A stretch of 64,000 nt of DNA from Deltaproteobacteria bacterium (lineage in GTDB: Bacteria; Desulfobacterota; Deferrimicrobia; Deferrimicrobiales; Deferrimicrobiaceae), in contig CP070783.1 in NCBI GenBank assembly GCA_020346465.1, positions 1,969,402 through 2,033,401 of the forward strand. Direction: 5' to 3'. Position 1 is the stretch's first letter. Every line of letters begins with the position of its first letter. Made by a program: the position numbers and the translations under genes. The notes under the pieces were generated by a model that saw nothing but the letters and a program-made list of their open reading frames with translations, searched no databases and had not been told where the DNA came from. Below, piece after piece: positions 3,308 to 50,451 of the stretch.

Positions 3308-3896
3308 CTCCGTCCCTTCCCGTCTCGTGTTCGGTCTCGGGAACCCCGGCCGGCGGTACGCGGGAACGTTTCACAACGCGGGGTTCCTGGCGCTGGATCT
3401 TCTGGCGGTCACCTGCGGCATCCGGCTCCGGTCCTCCGGGGAGGCCGAGGTCGGCGTGGGGACGGTGGAGGGAGTGACGGTTCTCCTCGGCAAGCCGAGG
3501 ACGTACATGAACCGGAGCGGACGGGCCGTGGCGCCCGTCTACGGGAGATTCGCGGGGTCTCCCGAAGACCTCGTGGTTCTTCACGACGATCTCGATCTGG
3601 GCCTGGGCGTCGTGAGGCTGAAGCGCGGCGGCGGGATGGGGGGCCACAACGGCCTCCGCTCGCTGGAGGAGGAGCTCGGCACCCGGGACTTCCTCCGGGT
3701 CCGCATCGGGATCGGCCGTCCCCCGGGAGGGGTCGACCCGGCCGATTTCGTTCTCCGACCGGTCCCGGAGGAGGTGCGGGAGCGGTTTCAGGGGGGGATC
3801 TCCTCCGCCGCGGAGGCTGTCGCGGAGATCCTCCGGGAAGGGTTCGACAGGACGATGACGCGGTGGAACGGGCGCCGCGCAGCACCCCCTCCCTGA
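3276..3896 (+). CDS. pth: peptidyl-tRNA hydrolase
   Basis: LVFGLGNPG..Y..TFHNAGF and the HNG/GIGRP motifs of Pth; the ORF-track start (3276) overlaps rplY, so the true start is probably GTG at 3327. Confidence 0.85.
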   Translation: MWRNPGKRRSSSVPSRLVFGLGNPGRRYAGTFHNAGFLALDLLAVTCGIRLRSSGEAEVGVGTVEGVTVLLGKPRTYMNRSGRAVAPVYGRFAGSPEDLVVLHDDLDLGLGVVRLKRGGGMGGHNGLRSLEEELGTRDFLRVRIGIGRPPGGVDPADFVLRPVPEEVRERFQGGISSAAEAVAEILREGFDRTMTRWNGRRAAPPP

Positions 3897-3969
3897 CGTT
3901 GCGGGGGAAGGGGACATACTCCTTGCTCCCGGCGGCCAAGACCGGGGGCTCGATGAGCCGAAAGGAGGC

Positions 3970-42188: not shown

Positions 42189-42437
42189 ATGGGCTTTTTC
42201 GCGGGAGGAGGTGTGGACATGAGAACGGATGTAGAGAGGGTCCTGGAGAAGATTCGCCCGGCCCTGCAGGCGGACGGGGGCGACGTGGAACTCGTCGACG
42301 TCGAAGGGGGCGTGGTGAAGGTGCGACTGACCGGCGCGTGCGGGGGCTGTCCCATGGCGACCGTCACGCTGAAGCACGGGATCGAGGCGACGCTGAAAGA
42401 GGAGATTCCCTCGGTAGACCGGGTGGAATCCGTTTAG
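42189..42437 (+). CDS. NifU-domain (Nfu-type) Fe-S cluster carrier protein
   Basis: [40 protein letters not shown] is the Nfu/NifU C-terminal domain CxxC signature; likely start at the internal ATG at 42219. Confidence 0.7.
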
Positions 42438-42463
42438 CCGGACCACCGGACGGAGGCGACAGG

Positions 42464-42600
42464 GCGTACAGGATCAACGACGAGTGCATCGCGGAGGGGG
42501 AGCCGACCTGCTCCGTCGATGCGGGCAGGTGGACGGATTGCGCTGCCTGCGCGGCGGTTTGCCCGACCGCGTCGTGCGTGCCGGCCTGGCCGGGCGCTCG
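42464..42600 (+). pseudogene. ferredoxin-like coding remnant without a start codon (degenerate first cluster motif)
   Basis: Frame 2 reads AYRINDECIAEGEPTCSVDAGRWTDCAACAAVCPTA, compared with the 2[4Fe-4S] ferredoxin consensus AYxInDeCIaCGaCepeCPvdAI...DCgaCadvCP; first CxxCxxC lost, second half retained; no ATG/GTG/TTG upstream in frame. Confidence 0.25.
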
Positions 42601-42734: not shown

Positions 42735-43280
42735 CTAGAGAAGCTTCTTCACCTCGCTGTCGAAGGCGTCCCGGTCCAGATACCCCACGTGGACGTTTCG
42801 GATCGTGCCGTCCTTCCCGATGAAGACGGTGGTCGGCAGGGAGGAGACGCCCCCGTAGGCCCTCGTGGTGGCGAGGTCCCCCAGGAGGATCCGGTACTCG
42901 ATCCCGTAATTCATGACGAAGGCCGGGAGTTCCTGCCGGGTGTCGGTGTCGAGGGATATCCCCACGAGCTCGAACCCCCTGTCCCGGTACTTGTTGTAGA
43001 CGTCCACGAATCCCGGGATCTCCTCCACGCAGGCGGGGCACCACGTGGCGAAGAAGTTGATCACGGTGGGTTTTCCCAGGAAACGGGAGGAGTGGACGAC
43101 GTTGCCGCTCACGTCCTTCAGGGAGAAGGTCGGTGCGGTCGCGCCCGCGGAAAGCGCGGCTCCGACCGTCGCCCCCCCCCCGTCGCCCGGATCCCTGTAC
43201 GGCGAGTTCGAGGAGAGCAGAACGGCCCCCGTGAACGACAGGACCAGGACCGCCACCAGCAGGAAGTGGGCGGGTTTCAT
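42735..43280 (-). CDS. TlpA-family thiol-disulfide oxidoreductase (periplasmic thioredoxin-like)
   Basis: Signal/anchor MKPAHFLLVAVLVL, active site FFATWCPACVEEIP. Confidence 0.75.
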   Translation of the reverse strand: MKPAHFLLVAVLVLSFTGAVLLSSNSPYRDPGDGGGATVGAALSAGATAPTFSLKDVSGNVVHSSRFLGKPTVINFFATWCPACVEEIPGFVDVYNKYRDRGFELVGISLDTDTRQELPAFVMNYGIEYRILLGDLATTRAYGGVSSLPTTVFIGKDGTIRNVHVGYLDRDAFDSEVKKLL

Positions 43281-43479
43281 CCGGAACCTCCCGCGGGTTC
43301 CGATCCCTCCCGATTCGTCTGGCTCTTTCCCCCGGAGTTGTGCATCCTGTTATTGTAAAGAGATAAAGATGAAACGAAAAGCCCGCTCTCCTAATCGTAC
43401 AGGGTAGGAACATCCATGCCGCGGGAGGCGGGCCGCACGAGGCGGGAAGATCGGCAGGCCCTGACCGGGAGGACGCGCG

Positions 43480-43677
43480 ATGGCAGAGTGGACGATGGAA
43501 GAGGTGCTGCGCCTGGCGCTCCGGCACGAGACGGAGAATTTCGCGGAATACAAGAAGGCCTCGGAAGAAGCGCAGAACCCGGCGATCCGGGCGATGTTCC
43601 AGTTTCTGGCGGATGAGGAGCGGGGTCACATCAAGCTGATCCGGGACAAGATGGCCGAGTTCCAGGTGAAGGAGTAG
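43480..43677 (+). CDS. small rubrerythrin/ferritin-like half-domain protein (65 aa)
   Basis: Two-helix unit with E..E..Y (ALRHETENFAEY) and ExxH (ADEERGHIKL) diiron-ligand spacing; sits upstream of nifS. Confidence 0.55.
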   Translation: MAEWTMEEVLRLALRHETENFAEYKKASEEAQNPAIRAMFQFLADEERGHIKLIRDKMAEFQVKE

Positions 43678-43685
43678 GCGGGGGG

Positions 43686-44903
43686 TTGCCGTTGGCGCAC
43701 ATCTTCTTCGACCATATCTCCACAACGCCTCTCGACCCGCGGGTGCTCGCGGCGATGATGCCGTATTTCACCGAGCGATACGGAAACCCGTCGTCGCACA
43801 TTCACGACCAGGGACAGGCGGCGGTGAAGGCGGTGGACGCCGCCCGGGCGGATGTCGCCGCGCTCGTCCGCGCGAAGCCCCAGGAAATCGTCTTCACCTC
43901 CGGCGCGACCGAGGCGAACAACCTGGCGATCAAGGGCGCGGCGGAAGGCAGCGGGAAGAAGGGGAAGCACCTGGTGGTCTCCGAGGTGGAGCACTTCTCC
44001 GTGCTGAACGCGCTCCGGCCTCTTCGCAACCGGGGATACGAGGTCACGACCGTGCGGGCCGACTCCGACGGAAAGGTCGATCCGTCCGACGTGCGAAGGG
44101 CCATTCGTCCCGACACCGTTCTCGTCTCGGTGATGCACGCCAACGCCGAGATCGGGACCGTCGAGCCCATCGAGGAGATCGGGCGCATCGCAAGGGAGCG
44201 GGAGGTCCTGTTCCACACGGACGCGACCGCGTCGGCGGGGCACATCCCGCTCGATGTCCGGGCGGCGGGGGCGGACCTGGTCACGCTGTCGGCGCACCAT
44301 TTCTACGGTCCCAAGGGAACCGGGGCCCTCGTGGTGCGGGAGGGGGTGTCGCTCGAATCCCAGATCGACGGCGGGTTCCAGGAGATGGGCTTCCGTGCCG
44401 GGACGGAAAACGTGCCCGGGATCGCAGGGATGGGCCAGGCGGCGCGCATCGCCTCCGAGGAGATGGGACAGTGGGCGGCGCACCTGGGCCGGCTCGGAAA
44501 CCGTCTGCGCGACGGCATCGCCTCCTCGATCGGGCACCTCCACTTCACCGGCCATCCCACGGACCGGCTCCCGGGTCACGTGAGCTTCTGGGTCGAGTTC
44601 GCGGAGGGCGAGTCGCTCCTGCTGTTCCTCAACGTCCGCGGCGTGATGGCGGCGTCGGGATCGGCGTGCAGCTCGAACCTGAAAGGCCGGGACGAGGAGG
44701 ACCTGGTCGCCTCCCACGTGCTCCGGGCGATCGGGGTCCCGAGCGACATCTGCACGGGATCGATCACCTTCAGCATGGGCAAGGGGAACACCGAGCAGGA
44801 GGTGGACCACGTCCTGTCGGTCCTGCCGGATATCGTCCGGCGGCTGTGGGAGATGTCGCCCACCTATCTCGACTACCAGAAGAAGATCCCGCAGGGAGGG
44901 TAA
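43686..44903 (+). CDS. nifS: cysteine desulfurase (NifS/IscS class I)
   Basis: PLP-fold motifs IVFTSGATEANN, SAHHFYGPKG (PLP lysine) and active-site loop SGSACSS; TTG start. Confidence 0.85.
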   Translation: MPLAHIFFDHISTTPLDPRVLAAMMPYFTERYGNPSSHIHDQGQAAVKAVDAARADVAALVRAKPQEIVFTSGATEANNLAIKGAAEGSGKKGKHLVVSEVEHFSVLNALRPLRNRGYEVTTVRADSDGKVDPSDVRRAIRPDTVLVSVMHANAEIGTVEPIEEIGRIAREREVLFHTDATASAGHIPLDVRAAGADLVTLSAHHFYGPKGTGALVVREGVSLESQIDGGFQEMGFRAGTENVPGIAGMGQAARIASEEMGQWAAHLGRLGNRLRDGIASSIGHLHFTGHPTDRLPGHVSFWVEFAEGESLLLFLNVRGVMAASGSACSSNLKGRDEEDLVASHVLRAIGVPSDICTGSITFSMGKGNTEQEVDHVLSVLPDIVRRLWEMSPTYLDYQKKIPQGG

Positions 44904-44909
44904 GCGGCG

Positions 44910-45293
44910 ATGGCGAGCGGACCATACAGCGAGAAGGTGATGGATCACTTCATGAACCCGAGAAACGTCGGCGAGATCGAGGACGCCAGCGGGGTCGGCG
45001 AGGTCGGGAATCCGGCCTGCGGGGACATGATGCGCCTCTATCTCAAGGTCGAGGGCGGGAAGGTCGTGGACGCGAAGTTCCGCACCTTCGGCTGCGGGGC
45101 CGCCATCGCCTCCAGCTCCATGCTGACGGAGATGATCAGGGGGAAGACGATCGAGGAGGCGCAGGCCATCACGAACCAGCACGTCGCCGACGCACTCGAC
45201 GGCCTGCCGGCCGTGAAGATCCACTGCTCGGTCATGGCCGAGGAGGCGGTGAAGGCGGCTCTGGACGACTACCGGAAGAAGAATCCCGCCTGA
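44910..45293 (+). CDS. nifU: Fe-S cluster assembly scaffold (IscU/NifU N-terminal type)
   Basis: [29 protein letters not shown] and HCS scaffold cysteines. Confidence 0.85.
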
Positions 45294-45313
45294 CCCGGGA
45301 GGGTTGCCCGGCG

Positions 45314-45775
45314 ATGCTGGACCTGAACGAGATCGAGATCCTGCAGGTTGCCCTGGCGCACGAGCGGCAGGCGCGGATCTTTTACGAGCGGCTGGCCCGG
45401 CGGCAGGGAGACACCCCGGCGGGAGACCTGTTCCACTTCCTCGCGGCAGAGGAGGAGGGACACATCCGCAAGCTGTCCGCGATGCACGGGATCCCCGCGT
45501 ACGAGGCCGGATGGGAGGAGAAGTACCTGCCGTACATGATCGACCTGGACCGCCTCGCCTGGGAGGAAGGGGTCGAGGCGGGGGGCGCCGAAGGGCCCGA
45601 CGCGCAGCGGAAGGGGCTCTCCGTGGCGCGGAAGGCGGAATCGCATGCCGTCGCCTTCTACCATCAGGCCTCGAAGAGCGTCGAGGATGACCGCATGCGG
45701 AACCTGCTCGCCGGGCTGGAGGACGAGGAAAGGATCCATCTCGCGAAGATCGACGCGTTTCTGAAGGACCTGTAG
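45314..45775 (+). CDS. rubrerythrin/ferritin-like four-helix-bundle protein (153 aa, two E..ExxH half-sites)
   Basis: First half ALAHERQARIFYERLA...AAEEEGHIRKL, second half ARKAESHAVAFYHQAS...LEDEERIHLAKI; diiron-carboxylate ligand pattern. Confidence 0.6.
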   Translation: MLDLNEIEILQVALAHERQARIFYERLARRQGDTPAGDLFHFLAAEEEGHIRKLSAMHGIPAYEAGWEEKYLPYMIDLDRLAWEEGVEAGGAEGPDAQRKGLSVARKAESHAVAFYHQASKSVEDDRMRNLLAGLEDEERIHLAKIDAFLKDL

Positions 45776-45812
45776 GAGCCCCGCGGGGCAATCATCCCTT
45801 CCGGAGGCAGGC

Positions 45813-46013
45813 ATGAAGACTTCGAATCCCGTGGACGTGATGCGGATGGCGCTGGAGCGCGAGAAGGCGGCGGTCCGGGACTACTCGGAATTCGCGAAGA
45901 CGGCCAAGGAGCCGTCGATCCGGGAGATGTTCCTCTACCTGGTGCAGGAGGAGGAAAAGCACGTGAAACTCCTGCAGGACGAGATTGACCGGGAGGTCAA
46001 TCAGGAGATGTAG
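45813..46013 (+). CDS. small rubrerythrin/ferritin-like half-domain protein (66 aa), paralog of 43480..43677
   Basis: MALEREKAAVRDYSEFA...LVQEEEKHVKLLQDEI has the same E..E..Y / ExxH pattern. Confidence 0.55.
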   Translation: MKTSNPVDVMRMALEREKAAVRDYSEFAKTAKEPSIREMFLYLVQEEEKHVKLLQDEIDREVNQEM

Positions 46014-46021
46014 GGGGGGCG

Positions 46022-47446
46022 ATGCTTTCCCTCTACGACACCGTTTCCCGGAAGAAGGTCCCGCTCGTTCCCCTCCGGCCGGACCGGGTCGGGATATACA
46101 CCTGCGGCCCCACCGTGTACCGCTACGTCCACATCGGAAACCTGCGGACCTATCTGCTGACGGACCTTCTCCTGCGGGCCGTCCGGTTCGACGGACTCGC
46201 CCCGTTCTCCGTCCAGAACATCACCGACATGGGACACATGCACCAGGAGCAGCTCGCGCAGACGGAGGACAAGGTCATCGCCGCCGCCCGGGCCGCGGGG
46301 AAGACGGCGAAGGAGATCGCGGAGTTCTTCACCGGGGCGTTCTTCCGGGATTGCCGGAGGATGAATTTCCTCCCTTCCGACGTCTACCCGCGCGCGTCGA
46401 CCCACGTCCCCGAGATGATCGCGATGGCGAAGGAGCTGGAGGGGAAGGGAGTGACGTACGGCGAGGGCGGCTACCTCTATTTCGACGTGACGAAGGCGAA
46501 GGGGTACGGGGAGCTGTCCGGCGCGGTCCTGGGGGAAGGGGAGACGGCCGGCCGGACGGACGAATCGATCCATCGCCGGAAGAATCGCCCGGAGGATTTC
46601 TCGCTCTGGCTCGCGGCCGATCCCGGGAGGGAGTTTCTCTGGGAGAGCCCGTGGGGGCTCGGCTGGCCCGGCTGGCACATCGAGTGCGCGGCGATGGCGG
46701 AAAAGTACCTCGGCAGGGAGTTCGACATCCACGTCGGGGGGGTGGACCTGCGGTTCCCCCACCATGAGAACTCCCGGGCGATGGCGATGACGGCCACCGG
46801 CGGGCGGTTCGCCCTTCTCTGGGTGCACGCGGCGCACCTGCTCGTCGACGGGCGCAAGATGTCCAAGTCGCTTTCGAACGAGTACACGCTCGACGACCTC
46901 GAGTCCCGGGGCGTGAGCCCGATGGACTTCCGGTACCACTGCCTCACGCTCCATTACCGGACGCCGATGAACTTCACCTGGGCGGCGCAGGGGGCGTCCG
47001 CGAAGGCGCTCGCGAGACTGCGCGAGGCGTTTTCCGGGAAGGGGGAGACGGGCGCAGGGGGCGGCCGGGCGGACGGGGCGGAAGGGTTCCGGCGCCGTTT
47101 CCGGGAGGCGATCGGGGACGACCTGAACGCTCCCAGGGCGCTTGCCGTCGTGCACGAGGCGGCCCGGTCGGACCTTCCGGGAGATGTCGTGAGGGAGCTG
47201 GCCCGGGAGTGGGACGCGGTGCTGGGCGTGGGACTTCTGGGGGAGGTCTCCGGGGAAGGGGCCGGGGAAAGTGCGCCGGGGGGGGAGGCCGCCCCGGCGG
47301 AGGTGGTCGGCCTCGCGCGTAGCCGCGACAGGTGCCGGCGGGAGCGCAGGTTCGCCGAGGCGGACGCCCTGCGCGAGAGGATCCGGGAAGCCGGGTACGA
47401 TGTCGTCGACGGGAAGGACGGAGCCGGGAGGGTGCGGAAGAGATGA
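46022..47446 (+). CDS. cysS: cysteinyl-tRNA synthetase
   Basis: Class I HIGH (YTCGPTVYRYVHIGN) and KMSKS (KMSKSLSN) motifs. Confidence 0.9.
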   Translation: MLSLYDTVSRKKVPLVPLRPDRVGIYTCGPTVYRYVHIGNLRTYLLTDLLLRAVRFDGLAPFSVQNITDMGHMHQEQLAQTEDKVIAAARAAGKTAKEIAEFFTGAFFRDCRRMNFLPSDVYPRASTHVPEMIAMAKELEGKGVTYGEGGYLYFDVTKAKGYGELSGAVLGEGETAGRTDESIHRRKNRPEDFSLWLAADPGREFLWESPWGLGWPGWHIECAAMAEKYLGREFDIHVGGVDLRFPHHENSRAMAMTATGGRFALLWVHAAHLLVDGRKMSKSLSNEYTLDDLESRGVSPMDFRYHCLTLHYRTPMNFTWAAQGASAKALARLREAFSGKGETGAGGGRADGAEGFRRRFREAIGDDLNAPRALAVVHEAARSDLPGDVVRELAREWDAVLGVGLLGEVSGEGAGESAPGGEAAPAEVVGLARSRDRCRRERRFAEADALRERIREAGYDVVDGKDGAGRVRKR

Positions 47447-48501: not shown

Positions 48502-48576
48502 TGGTGGGCGCTACAGGATTTGAACCTGTGACTTCCACCGTGTGAAGGTGGCACTCTACCGCTGAGTTAAGCGCCC
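48502..48576 (-). tRNA. tRNA-Val (anticodon CAC)
   Basis: Reverse complement GGGCGCTTAACTCAGCGGTAGAGTGCCACCTTCACACGGTGG...GGTTCAAATCC...AGCGCCCACCA has a 7-bp acceptor, anticodon loop UUCACAC and the T-loop; the 48300..48554 track ORF is this tRNA read as protein. Confidence 0.85.
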
Positions 48577-48915: not shown

Positions 48916-49011
48916 GGAAGCGGATGGGGCGCTGGTGGCCCCCCCGGACTTCAAATCCGGTCGGGAGGCAGCAATGTCTCCGGTGGGTTCGATTCCCTCA
49001 CGCTTCCGCCA
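48916..49011 (+). tRNA. selC: tRNA-Sec (selC), anticodon UCA
   Basis: 96-nt tRNA: 5' GGAAGCGG ... 3' CGCTTCC-G-CCA, long acceptor (7-8 bp), anticodon arm CCGGA-CUUCAAA-UCCGG (U33, UCA, A37), long stem-loop variable arm, T-loop GGTTCGATTCC, discriminator G. Start and end residues are like E. coli selC (GGAAG...CTTCCGCCA). Confidence 0.7.
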
Positions 49012-49568
49012 CGTTTGATCGAATATCGGCACCCGCAGTAGTTCTGCCGGTAGATGCCGAGCCGCTTCGCGGTCTCCACGCTCTTGCGGAACCCGTCCCG
49101 TTTCTTCAGGTCCGCCTCGAGGAAGAAGACGCCGGCCTTCTCCCCCTCCTCGCGGCCGATGCGGTTCACCATCGCGGCATCCTTTTTCGGGCTCACCGTC
49201 AGGACCGTGGAAAACGCCGGAATCCCGAGGGACTTTGCCTCGCTCGCGGTCCGCGCGAGACGCATCCGGATGCACGCCTCGCAGCGCTTTCCCCGCTCCG
49301 GCTCGGCCTCGAGCCCCCGGACCGCCTCCTCCCATTCCTCTTCCCCTCCCCGGGCGACCTCGAGGGGGAACGGAACGGGGCCCGCAAGCTCCCGGGTCGC
49401 GGCAAGCCGCCGGTCGTACTCCTCCCCCGGCTGGATGTTCGGGTTGAAGAAGAACCCGGTGACCCGGGAACGCTCCTGCATCGCCGGGACGCCGTGCGAG
49501 GCGTCGGGCGCGCAGCAGATGTGGAGCAGGACGTGGTCCCCCCCGGGGGGCGGCTCTTTCGGCCTCAT
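48951..49568 (-). CDS. queH: epoxyqueuosine reductase QueH (DUF208)
   Basis: LLHICCAPDAS, FFFNPNIQPGEEY, CEACIRMRL and YRQNYCGCRYS QueH signatures; the last 20 codons run antisense through selC and the ORF stops at TGA = reverse complement of the Sec anticodon. Confidence 0.75.
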   Translation of the reverse strand: MRPKEPPPGGDHVLLHICCAPDASHGVPAMQERSRVTGFFFNPNIQPGEEYDRRLAATRELAGPVPFPLEVARGGEEEWEEAVRGLEAEPERGKRCEACIRMRLARTASEAKSLGIPAFSTVLTVSPKKDAAMVNRIGREEGEKAGVFFLEADLKKRDGFRKSVETAKRLGIYRQNYCGCRYSIKRGGSVRESNPPETLLPPDRI

Positions 49569-49600
49569 CGACGAAACCCCACCTTCCGTTTCCGGTATCT

Positions 49601-49606
49601 TATAAT
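49601..49606 (+). promoter_or_regulatory. TATAAT -10 hexamer in the queH / M50-protease divergent intergenic region
   Basis: GGTATCTTATAATTG about 30 nt upstream of the protease GTG start (RBS AAGAGGAGGG). Confidence 0.3.
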
Positions 49607-49635
49607 TGAACCGGGAGAAAAGAGGAGGGAAACCT

Positions 49636-50451
49636 GTGATCGTCAACGCGGTTCTGTTTGCCCTGACGTTTGTCACGACGCTCTTCGCGGGGTCGTTTCT
49701 CGCCGGCGGGAACCCCCTTGCGTCCCCCCGGGACCTGCTGCTCGGGTTCATGTTCTCCGTTCCCCTCCTGTCCATCCTCGGGGTCCACGAACTGGGCCAT
49801 TACGCGGCGGCCAGGCGGCACGACGTCTCGGTGACCCCTCCGTACTTCATCCCCGCGCCGTCGTTCATCGGGACGTTCGGCGCCTTCATCAAGATCCGGT
49901 CGCCCGTCCCGAACCGGAACGCCCTGATGGACATCGGGGCGGCCGGGCCGATCGCCGGCGCGATCGTCTCCGTCCCCGTCCTCCTCGTCGGCCTCGCCTT
50001 ATCCTCCGTGCGCGATTCCGCCGGGATCGCGGCGGGGATCCCCCTCGGGGAGTCGCTCCTCTTCCGGGCGGCGGCATACGCCGTGCTCGGCCCCGTCCCC
50101 GACGGGTACGACGTGGTCCTGCACCCCGTGGCGTTCGCCGGGTGGATCGGTCTGCTCGTGACGGCCCTGAACCTGCTCCCTTCGGGGCAGCTCGACGGCG
50201 GCCACATCGCCTACGCGCTGTTCGGCGGCGGCTACACCCGGGTTGCGCGCGCCGTCCCGTTCCTCCTTCTCCCTCTCGGGCTCCTCTGGGGGGGGTGGAT
50301 CATCTGGTCCTTCCTGCTGCTGATTCTGGGGACGAAGCACCCGCGGTCCCTCTACGACGAGGTCCCCCTGACCCCCGGCAGGAAACGGATCGGCATCGCG
50401 GCGGCCGTCCTGTTCCTGCTCTGCTTCACCCCCAATCCGGTACCGATCTAG
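49636..50451 (+). CDS. site-2 protease family (M50) membrane metalloprotease
   Basis: HELGHY zinc motif and NLLPSGQLDGGH second motif; GTG start with AAGAGGAGGG RBS. Confidence 0.8.
   Translation: MIVNAVLFALTFVTTLFAGSFLAGGNPLASPRDLLLGFMFSVPLLSILGVHELGHYAAARRHDVSVTPPYFIPAPSFIGTFGAFIKIRSPVPNRNALMDIGAAGPIAGAIVSVPVLLVGLALSSVRDSAGIAAGIPLGESLLFRAAAYAVLGPVPDGYDVVLHPVAFAGWIGLLVTALNLLPSGQLDGGHIAYALFGGGYTRVARAVPFLLLPLGLLWGGWIIWSFLLLILGTKHPRSLYDEVPLTPGRKRIGIAAAVLFLLCFTPNPVPI

Follow-up and report, generated by a model that had tools for sequence, protein, structure and literature searches.

An operon of the Deferrimicrobiaceae joins NifU and a lysine-less NifS to three small ferritin-superfamily proteins with a possible role in iron handling

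Two half-ferritins of 65 and 66 amino acids (aa), here called A and C, and a 153-aa ferritin-like protein, B, are encoded together with a NifU scaffold and a NifS-like protein lacking the catalytic lysine (NifS*) in a 64,000-nucleotide (nt) stretch of Deltaproteobacteria bacterium chromosomal DNA (assembly GCA_020346465.1, contig CP070783.1). This stretch, hereafter the window, has a GC content of 65 to 70%. The genes belong to six closely packed plus-strand genes (43480-47446), the last of which is cysS, and the operon is so far known from the Deferrimicrobiaceae/MBNT15 lineage alone. A, B, and C are genuine genes with conserved ligands and synteny. The most likely role of the operon, which we propose tentatively, is iron handling at the Fe-S scaffold. 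The iron donor in Fe-S biogenesis is a long-standing question for which frataxin/CyaY, IscX, and RIC are all disputed candidates, and the operon may be a route, not described before, by which cluster assembly is fed or guarded in an uncultured, probably iron-reducing lineage. The six genes are as follows.

43480..43677, plus strand: A, two-helix half-ferritin of 65 aa (Pfam Rubrerythrin, 30.9 bits)
43686..44903, plus strand: NifS*, NifS/IscS-like protein of the class-V aminotransferase fold with a TTG start 8 nt past the A stop codon (Aminotran_5, PF00266, 1.8e-77)
44910..45293, plus strand: NifU, single-domain U-type scaffold (TIGR03419 NifU_clost, 211.5 bits)
45314..45775, plus strand: B, predicted complete ferritin-like four-helix bundle of 153 aa (Pfam Rubrerythrin, 34.7 bits; Ferritin_2, 27.3 bits)
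45813..46013, plus strand: C, two-helix half-ferritin of 66 aa (Pfam Rubrerythrin, 29.9 bits)
46022..47446, plus strand: CysS, cysteinyl-tRNA synthetase, starting 8 nt past C (tRNA-synt_1e, 8e-83)

An initial annotation of this DNA had placed two open reading frames (ORFs) of about 65 aa and one of 153 aa around nifS-nifU, and all three are found at the coordinates given here. In a hidden Markov model (HMM) check, A, B, and C each scored above the gathering score of the Pfam family Rubrerythrin (PF02915, 22.8 bits), and B passed Ferritin_2 as well. The window, GC-rich at 66%, contains numerous long spurious ORFs, which would favor reading the small ORFs as spurious frames too, but that reading is ruled out with near certainty by the Pfam matches, by a length that stays at 65 to 66 aa over 58 to 98% identity, by invariant ligands, and by synteny. 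It also conflicts with the codon-level evidence. Median pairwise ratios of nonsynonymous to synonymous substitutions (dN/dS) were 0.24 for A and 0.23 for C (0.09 for NifU), GC contents at third and second codon positions (GC3/GC2; 0.86/0.30 for A and 0.90/0.25 for C) matched those of other genes of the genome, and a GGAGG ribosome-binding site precedes A in all 25 upstream regions that were aligned. Intergenic gaps of 6 to 37 nt, together with ribosome-binding sites across the operon genes, indicate a single transcription unit.

The distribution of the operon was assessed by a scan with the B alignment over one genome per GTDB species, which returned 27 loci. A, nifS, nifU, B, and C were all present and in this order in 22 of the 23 contigs spanning the region. 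The longer order CBS/ACT protein, Nfu, ferredoxin, TlpA (minus strand), A, NifS, NifU, B, C, CysS, and methyltransferase was kept in all contigs long enough to hold it and was found again in further metagenome contigs; CysS follows C at every related locus. Because this gene order is common to all 27 loci, they are taken as belonging to the Deferrimicrobiaceae/Deferrimicrobium (MBNT15) lineage. The initial annotation had proposed that lack of ligand conservation or of synteny would mark the small ORFs as spurious; the ligands proved invariant and the order was kept. It had also called the placement of ferritin-like genes in an Fe-S module unusual, and the literature searched contained no account of nifSU or iscSU operons with genes for ferritin-like or rubrerythrin-like proteins. 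Nor did it describe half-ferritins of this minimal size without an encapsulin, or a lysine-less NifS in a bacterium.

A search with A matched 88 proteins, nearly all of exactly 65 aa and 62 to 98% identical, which carry the database name "ferritin family protein" of Candidatus Deferrimicrobiaceae. Residues E17, Y24, E46, E47, and H50 of A are invariant in 30 homologs, and E17, Y24, E47, and H50 of C, plus a C-terminal QEM, in 25 orthologs, so that the E/Y and ExxH motifs picked out by the initial annotation are borne out. The two proteins are paralogs (37% identity, E value of 1e-12) that end directly after helix 2 (within 5 residues), A with ...KMAEFQVKE and C with ...DREVNQEM. Neither they nor B contain any cysteine, and all three are acidic (net charge of -4 for each of A and C and of -11 for B). 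AlphaFold2 (AF2), run with an alignment, predicted A to be a single helix-loop-helix (H6-30 and H34-60; predicted local distance difference test [pLDDT] score of 96.7), in keeping with the earlier assignment of the 65- and 66-aa ORFs as half-ferritins. Its best PDB fold is Myxococcus xanthus EncB (7s5c/7s5k; template modeling [TM] score of 0.83 to 0.88, root mean square deviation of 0.6 to 0.8 Å, 30 to 36% identity), followed by Rhodospirillum rubrum and Haliangium ochraceum EncFtn, NE0167, and the designed DF1 di-iron peptides. The A profile gave the same list against PDB sequences, in which no rubrerythrin chain appeared at an E value of ≤1. A and C are among the smallest natural members of the ferritin superfamily, close in size to the de novo DF1 peptides, which are among their matches as well.

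The encapsulated ferritins EncFtn, EncB, and EncC (R. rubrum Rru_A0973 and M. xanthus EncB; 5da5, 7s5c, and 7s5k) are, like A and C, built from a two-helix subunit. The ferroxidase center of EncFtn is made by Glu32, Glu62, His65, and Tyr39, contributed by two chains, and iron binding drives its assembly (PMC5012862). The spacing of these residues (Glu-7-Tyr-23-Glu-3-His) is identical to that of positions 17, 24, 47, and 50 of A and C. Because EncFtn and EncB form their site between two chains, we infer that the di-iron site of A and C, to which each chain would give Glu, Glu-x-x-His, and a second-shell Tyr, would be complete only when two chains pair, either as a homodimer or as an A-C heterodimer; metal binding by A, B, and C is likewise predicted from their sequences. 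EncFtn and EncB differ from A and C in length (about 100 to 160 aa versus 65 to 66 aa), in carrying a disordered C terminus or targeting peptide, and in their entry-site residues Glu31 and Glu34, whose equivalents are not conserved in A and C. A second comparison is offered by the short ferritin-like protein (s-FLP) NE0167 (3k6c), which is also a free-standing half-ferritin without a recognized targeting peptide (PMC11202242). NE0167 is longer (95 versus 65 aa), shows weak similarity (E value of 0.2 with the A profile), and has no reported link to Fe-S genes.

B was predicted by AF2 as four long helices with two short linker helices (pLDDT of 89.1, predicted TM score of 0.86). It doubles the ligand set, with E17, Y24, E47, and H50 in the first half and E109, Y116, E139, and H142 in the second, all invariant in homologs, which agrees with the complete bundle proposed for the 153-aa ORF. 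The linker between the halves is conserved, spans 40 residues, and contains WEEKYLPYLIDLDRLAWEEG. The ligand set is of the symmetric E/ExxH ×2 type, as in bacterioferritin (Bfr) and EncFtn. Rubrerythrin sites carry an additional Glu ligand, and B has no such Glu three residues past the first- or third-helix Glu, where A20 and A112 are invariant. Of the label "rubrerythrin-like" in the initial annotation, the Pfam family and the di-iron four-helix core stand. The rest does not, since the extra Glu is missing, the absence of cysteine means that none of A, B, and C has a rubredoxin-type Cys4 domain, and no PDB rubrerythrin matches the B profile at an E value of ≤0.1. As modeled, B is a complete four-helix bundle and not a canonical rubrerythrin. 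Its fold and sequence neighbors include Dps-like proteins, Bfr, and EncFtn, with the best matches among COG1633-type proteins (TM1526, 1vjx; Pyrococcus furiosus, 2fzf; Magnetospirillum magnetotacticum, 2oh3). These are functionally uncharacterized four-helix di-iron-carboxylate proteins of about 150 to 175 aa that are only 18 to 22% identical to B, to which the WEEKYLPYLIDLDRLAWEEG linker is specific. A, B, and C are therefore new members of known superfamilies, already labeled "ferritin family protein" or "rubrerythrin" in databases.

The closest relative of A is C and vice versa, and each is more similar to the N-terminal half of B than to the C-terminal half. Hence the two do not simply correspond to the halves of B, and B was rejected as a fission or fusion partner of A and C. 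A 217-aa JGI protein (P0146) that might be read as a B-C fusion is a frameshifted gene call, in which the C-terminal half of B runs out of frame into C.

Two natural deletion variants bear on how the three proteins relate. In locus L025 (JBLMWX010000185; 380-560 and 2600-2740), A is reduced to a 13-codon remnant, MAQRAMAEFQVTG, and C is gone, with B intact; its relatives L043 and L044 (86 to 87% nucleotide identity) retain A and C. In locus L052 (Ga0210103_1000373; 3843-3926), which is 92 to 93% identical to L033, L035, and L036 across A-NifS-NifU, B is cleanly deleted, and A and C are retained. These reciprocal deletions suggest that A and C work jointly, with a function overlapping that of B. 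Variants lacking B or lacking A and C also make a compact system for separating iron donation from oxidative protection. L025, L035, and L017, which carry the module at 60 to 90% identity, were deposited under the names of metagenome-assembled genomes of Gemmatimonadota, Actinomycetota, and Candidatus Limnocylindria; they are probably mis-binned or mislabeled.

The description of the module as a minimal NifSU system proved too simple. NifU is standard: it scores 211.5 bits with TIGR03419 NifU_clost (cut-off of 187.9), and 25 orthologs show no change in its ACGD, GCG, and HC motifs, so all cluster ligands (three Cys, Asp, and His) are present. In NifS*, the SAHK motif of the best PDB match, cysteine desulfurase 9wep_A, reads SAHH (His205), and the position of the lysine that forms the Schiff base with pyridoxal phosphate (PLP) is Asn in 21 and His in 4 of 25 orthologs and Lys in none. 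At the positions aligned to what we take to be Gln183 and Asn155 of Escherichia coli IscS, both PLP-contact residues in the sequence and numbering assumed here, the orthologs carry Ala/Gly and Ala/Ser/Met, respectively. Invariant in all 25 orthologs (E. coli numbering) are Thr76, His104, Asp180, Ser203, His205, and the loop Cys (SGSAC), after which a conserved 7-residue acidic insertion (NLKGRDEEDL) is found near residue 330. The protein falls below the NCBIfam cut-offs for both NifS (443.7 versus 530.75) and IscS (383.9 versus 643.2).

The second-best PDB family for NifS* is the IscS-IscU complex of Archaeoglobus fulgidus (4eb5 and 4hvk; E value of 6e-102). A. fulgidus IscS has Asp199 in place of the lysine, shows no desulfurase activity, binds pyridoxamine phosphate, and gives a Cys ligand to the IscU cluster, and Methanosarcina acetivorans IscS1 likewise lacks the lysine (PMC7585200, PMC8918507). 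As in these archaeal proteins, NifS* has lost the lysine, kept the loop Cys, and lies beside a U-type scaffold. Since the lysine is absent, as in the inactive A. fulgidus protein, NifS* probably lacks desulfurase activity. It differs from A. fulgidus IscS in having Asn or His instead of Asp, in the acidic insertion, and in sharing its operon with three ferritin-like genes. The hosts differ as well: NifS* is bacterial, and MBNT15 genomes encode no dissimilatory sulfate reduction, iron reduction being considered their ancestral respiration (PMC9386147), so the sulfide-supply argument made for A. fulgidus cannot simply be transferred. Inactive IscS paralogs had earlier been described in archaea and half-ferritins tied to encapsulins, and both are found here in a bacterium and in a new context. 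CysS was considered as a persulfide sulfur donor replacing the dead NifS and rejected: its KMSKS motif is present, and the region where we presume the KIIK motif to lie reads DKVIAAAR, which lends the idea no sequence support.

Iron handling at the scaffold would work as follows. NifU and the lysine-less NifS* would be coexpressed with three cysteine-free, acidic ferritin-superfamily proteins, whose di-iron carboxylate sites would take up Fe(II), perhaps oxidizing it transiently, and pass it to the NifS*-NifU complex. A, B, and C would thus take the place held elsewhere by CyaY, IscX, or the di-iron protein RIC/YtfE, and the part of NifS* would be chiefly to provide structure and a cysteine ligand, as A. 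fulgidus IscS does for IscU. We favor iron delivery because of the fixed operon position, the symmetric ferroxidase-type ligands, the acidity of the proteins, the RIC/YtfE precedent, and an iron-rich lifestyle. RIC/YtfE, a di-iron bundle, binds IscS as well as IscU and provides iron for cluster formation (PMC8117158). It is the closest functional analogy for B, being also a di-iron four-helix bundle, although it has a hemerythrin-like fold and ligands and a ScdA N-terminal domain, to neither of which A, B, or C has a Pfam match at an E value of ≤0.1. Fe(III) respiration is predicted for the lineage (PMC9386147), and the Fe(II) flux would accordingly be high.

IscX and frataxin (CyaY) are accessory proteins of Fe-S operons; both are small and acidic, bind iron weakly, and modulate IscS and IscU. 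C resembles IscX in size (about 66 aa) and in its position toward the operon end, but the IscX and CyaY folds are unrelated to A and C, which have no Pfam match to them. Conserved across a phylum-level lineage, the operon combines three tiny, easily expressed, predicted di-iron proteins with a scaffold and a lysine-less NifS.

A stricter form of this proposal, which we hold to be doubtful, is that A and C, interchangeable with the fused B, are a dedicated iron-delivery device, similar to the designed "Due Ferri" proteins, that loads Fe(II) at di-iron sites between subunits and then docks on the desulfurase-dead NifS-NifU complex. If so, the acidic loop insertion of NifS* would be a candidate docking or relay element, the operon would encode iron supply with sulfur mobilization given up or outsourced, and in other lineages the same B/C pair would be at the service of Fe-S enzymes, NadA among them.

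Relatives outside the Deferrimicrobiaceae have to be considered before these proposals are weighed. Word-indexed protein searches saturate with this lineage, and the wider view comes from an exhaustive HMM search and a metagenome scan. With the HMM, 1.84 billion representatives were searched, of which 2494 matched at an E value of ≤0.001. Among the best 150 of these, clusters other than those of A and C were almost all of 140 to 180 aa and matched the profile twice; only about 10 were short (65 to 71 aa), so free-standing half-ferritins are uncommon. A separate family of half-ferritins of about 68 aa (P0340 and P0469), which end in REM or LDM, is followed by NfeD and YdjM genes (L012, 104-2055; L045, 4845-7412), and a rubredoxin gene lies about 2 kb away in both loci, which may be a split rubrerythrin-like arrangement. 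Another half-ferritin (P0285) is located after riboflavin synthase. The metagenome scan, seeded with short proteins from outside the Deferrimicrobia, uncovered a second lineage (contigs of 44 to 54% GC) in which an 81-aa C-like protein with the QEM end is clustered with a B-like protein of 166 to 179 aa (L049, 2458-4480; L051, 3151-5204; L054, L055, L056, L057, L063, and L048). A TrxB-like flavoprotein of the pyridine-nucleotide-disulfide oxidoreductase family, which might donate electrons, is often part of this cluster, and the quinolinate synthase gene nadA lies directly downstream in five loci. No NifS or NifU was found in these B-like/C-like loci.

Several of these observations weigh against iron handling as the role of the operon. 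The distant short relatives that could be placed lie elsewhere, none adjoining nifSU, and the B-like/C-like pair with a flavoprotein and NadA is explained no less well by a redox or protective enzyme than by an iron donor. The characterized members of the best Pfam family, Rubrerythrin, are peroxidases. Contact of A, B, or C with NifS* or NifU is proposed from genomic context, and the presence of cysS in the operon means that cotranscription is no proof of a common pathway. Each deletion variant, moreover, is known from one assembly only. A protective role is a close second possibility: as di-iron oxidoreductases of the rubrerythrin type, A/C dimers and B would take electrons from the neighboring ferredoxin or another donor to reduce H2O2 or O2, shielding the oxygen-labile NifS*-NifU intermediate and clusters in transit in a host that moves between oxic and anoxic zones. 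Rubrerythrin as the best Pfam match, the second-lineage pair beside a flavoprotein and NadA, itself an oxygen-sensitive [4Fe-4S] enzyme, and the rubredoxin gene near the P0340-type half-ferritin in two loci all fit such a role. MBNT15 genomes also encode aa3, cbb3, and bd oxidases, superoxide dismutase, and catalase and hence meet oxygen (PMC9386147), and di-iron hemerythrins are reported to guard Fe-S enzymes in Campylobacter (PMC4257069). Against protection, A, B, and C have no rubredoxin domain, cysteine, or electron-transfer domain; neither the profile matches of B nor its ligand set, which lacks the additional Glu, points to rubrerythrin; the candidate donor ferredoxin has decayed in this genome with A, B, and C intact; and the conserved Deferrimicrobiaceae operon includes no reductase gene.

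General iron buffering, in which the three proteins would give an iron-reducing bacterium a minimal ferroxidase and iron-detoxification set that shares a housekeeping operon with cysS and nifSU but has no direct mechanistic part in cluster assembly, is unlikely. The inclusion of cysS and then a methyltransferase gene, the unrelated contexts of short half-ferritins elsewhere, and the dispensability of B or of A and C in single variants would all suit it. However, the order and close packing of the genes around nifS*-nifU do not change down to about 58 to 60% identity, the recurrence of B-like/C-like pairs beside nadA, another Fe-S enzyme gene, argues for an Fe-S link, and 65-aa proteins alone cannot enclose a mineral core; EncFtn needs an encapsulin to store iron (PMC5012862). 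An encapsulin shell encoded at another genomic site, with A and C as its cargo, is suggested by their closest structures and NCBIfam models, EncB and EncFtn, but we consider it highly improbable and reject it. The NCBIfam matches of A, B, and C to EncB/EncFtn cargo families, and to the iron exporter MbfA, are weak and subthreshold: the EncB, EncB_fam, and ferrit_encaps models give 16 to 31 bits against cut-offs of 90 to 210 (26 to 31 bits for EncB and EncB_fam, with cut-offs of 90 and 210). The C termini of A and C, which leave almost no residues beyond helix 2, carry no GSL-type targeting peptide (such as SLGIGSLK or LTVGSL) of the kind listed for FLP-TP cargo (PMC11202242). No encapsulin family was matched by the 30 window ORFs that the scan covered or at any of the syntenic loci; the genomic partner of A and C is nifS*-nifU.

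The genes upstream of the operon in the window include one for a CBS/ACT protein and the following features.

42189..42437, plus strand: Nfu-type Fe-S carrier, corresponding to the NifU C-terminal domain (PF01106, 8.9e-32; synteny)
42461..42589, plus strand: ferredoxin pseudogene, a 56-aa 2x[4Fe-4S] protein in relatives (comparison with related genomes)
42735..43280, minus strand: divergent TlpA/ResA-like thiol-disulfide oxidoreductase (AhpC-TSA, 1.6e-24; ResA subfamily match under the cut-off)
43338..43398, plus strand: candidate promoter and conserved leader block TGAAACGAAAAGCCCGCTCTCCTAATCG, as suggested by the alignment of 25 upstream regions

The three neighbors named by the initial annotation, Nfu, a decayed ferredoxin, and TlpA, were thus all recovered. 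The ferredoxin pseudogene has lost its start codon (ATG to AGG) and its stop codon (to Trp), carries a Cys-to-Trp change, and has a 42-bp in-frame deletion between GARTGCATCGC direct repeats that removes the first CxxCxxCxxxCP motif. In the nearest genome (L015, UBA11853; 94 to 98% protein identity), this ferredoxin gene is intact, and its position between Nfu and TlpA is conserved in relatives. Nfu and the ferredoxin are the only upstream Fe-S partners; the locus neighbors gave no family matches to HscAB, IscA, IscX, or IscR and do not make up a full ISC system.

The initial annotation had suggested looking for an Rrf2/IscR-type operator in 43281-43479, and none was found; this interval holds no inverted repeat, and there is no evidence for an IscR-type operator. 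The intergenic region between A and TlpA carries TTGTGC, 18 nt, and GATAAA in the window, which in the alignment of the 25 upstream regions takes the form TTGTGC-N17/18-TATAAr-like; a consensus sigma-70 promoter scan gave no match upstream of A. The leader block TGAAACGAAAAGCCCGCTCTCCTAATCG is conserved in the region common to A and the divergent TlpA gene. The leader has no Rfam match, and its predicted RNA fold is no more stable than that of shuffled sequence (z = 0.16). A perfect palindrome upstream of A, TTCCGTTT-G-AAACGGAA, could be a lineage-specific operator of some regulator. Exact copies were found only in four Deferrimicrobium-type loci (L031, 4068-4084; L034, 4058-4074; L036, 4100-4116; and L040, 1913-1929), and the window has no match even with 3 mismatches. 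The clade of the window has only the right half of the palindrome (TGAAACGAAAAG), together with a conserved CTCCTAATCG block, at 43369-43398.

About 1.5 kb downstream of the operon, a tRNA-Sec gene (anticodon TCA; 48916-49011, plus strand) lies beside a tRNA-Val gene (48502-48576, minus strand), so the organism probably makes selenoproteins. The tRNA region is overlapped by a minus-strand ORF (48951-49775) that we take, from motifs recognized by eye (HICCAPD...CGCRYS), to be QueH/DUF208-like.

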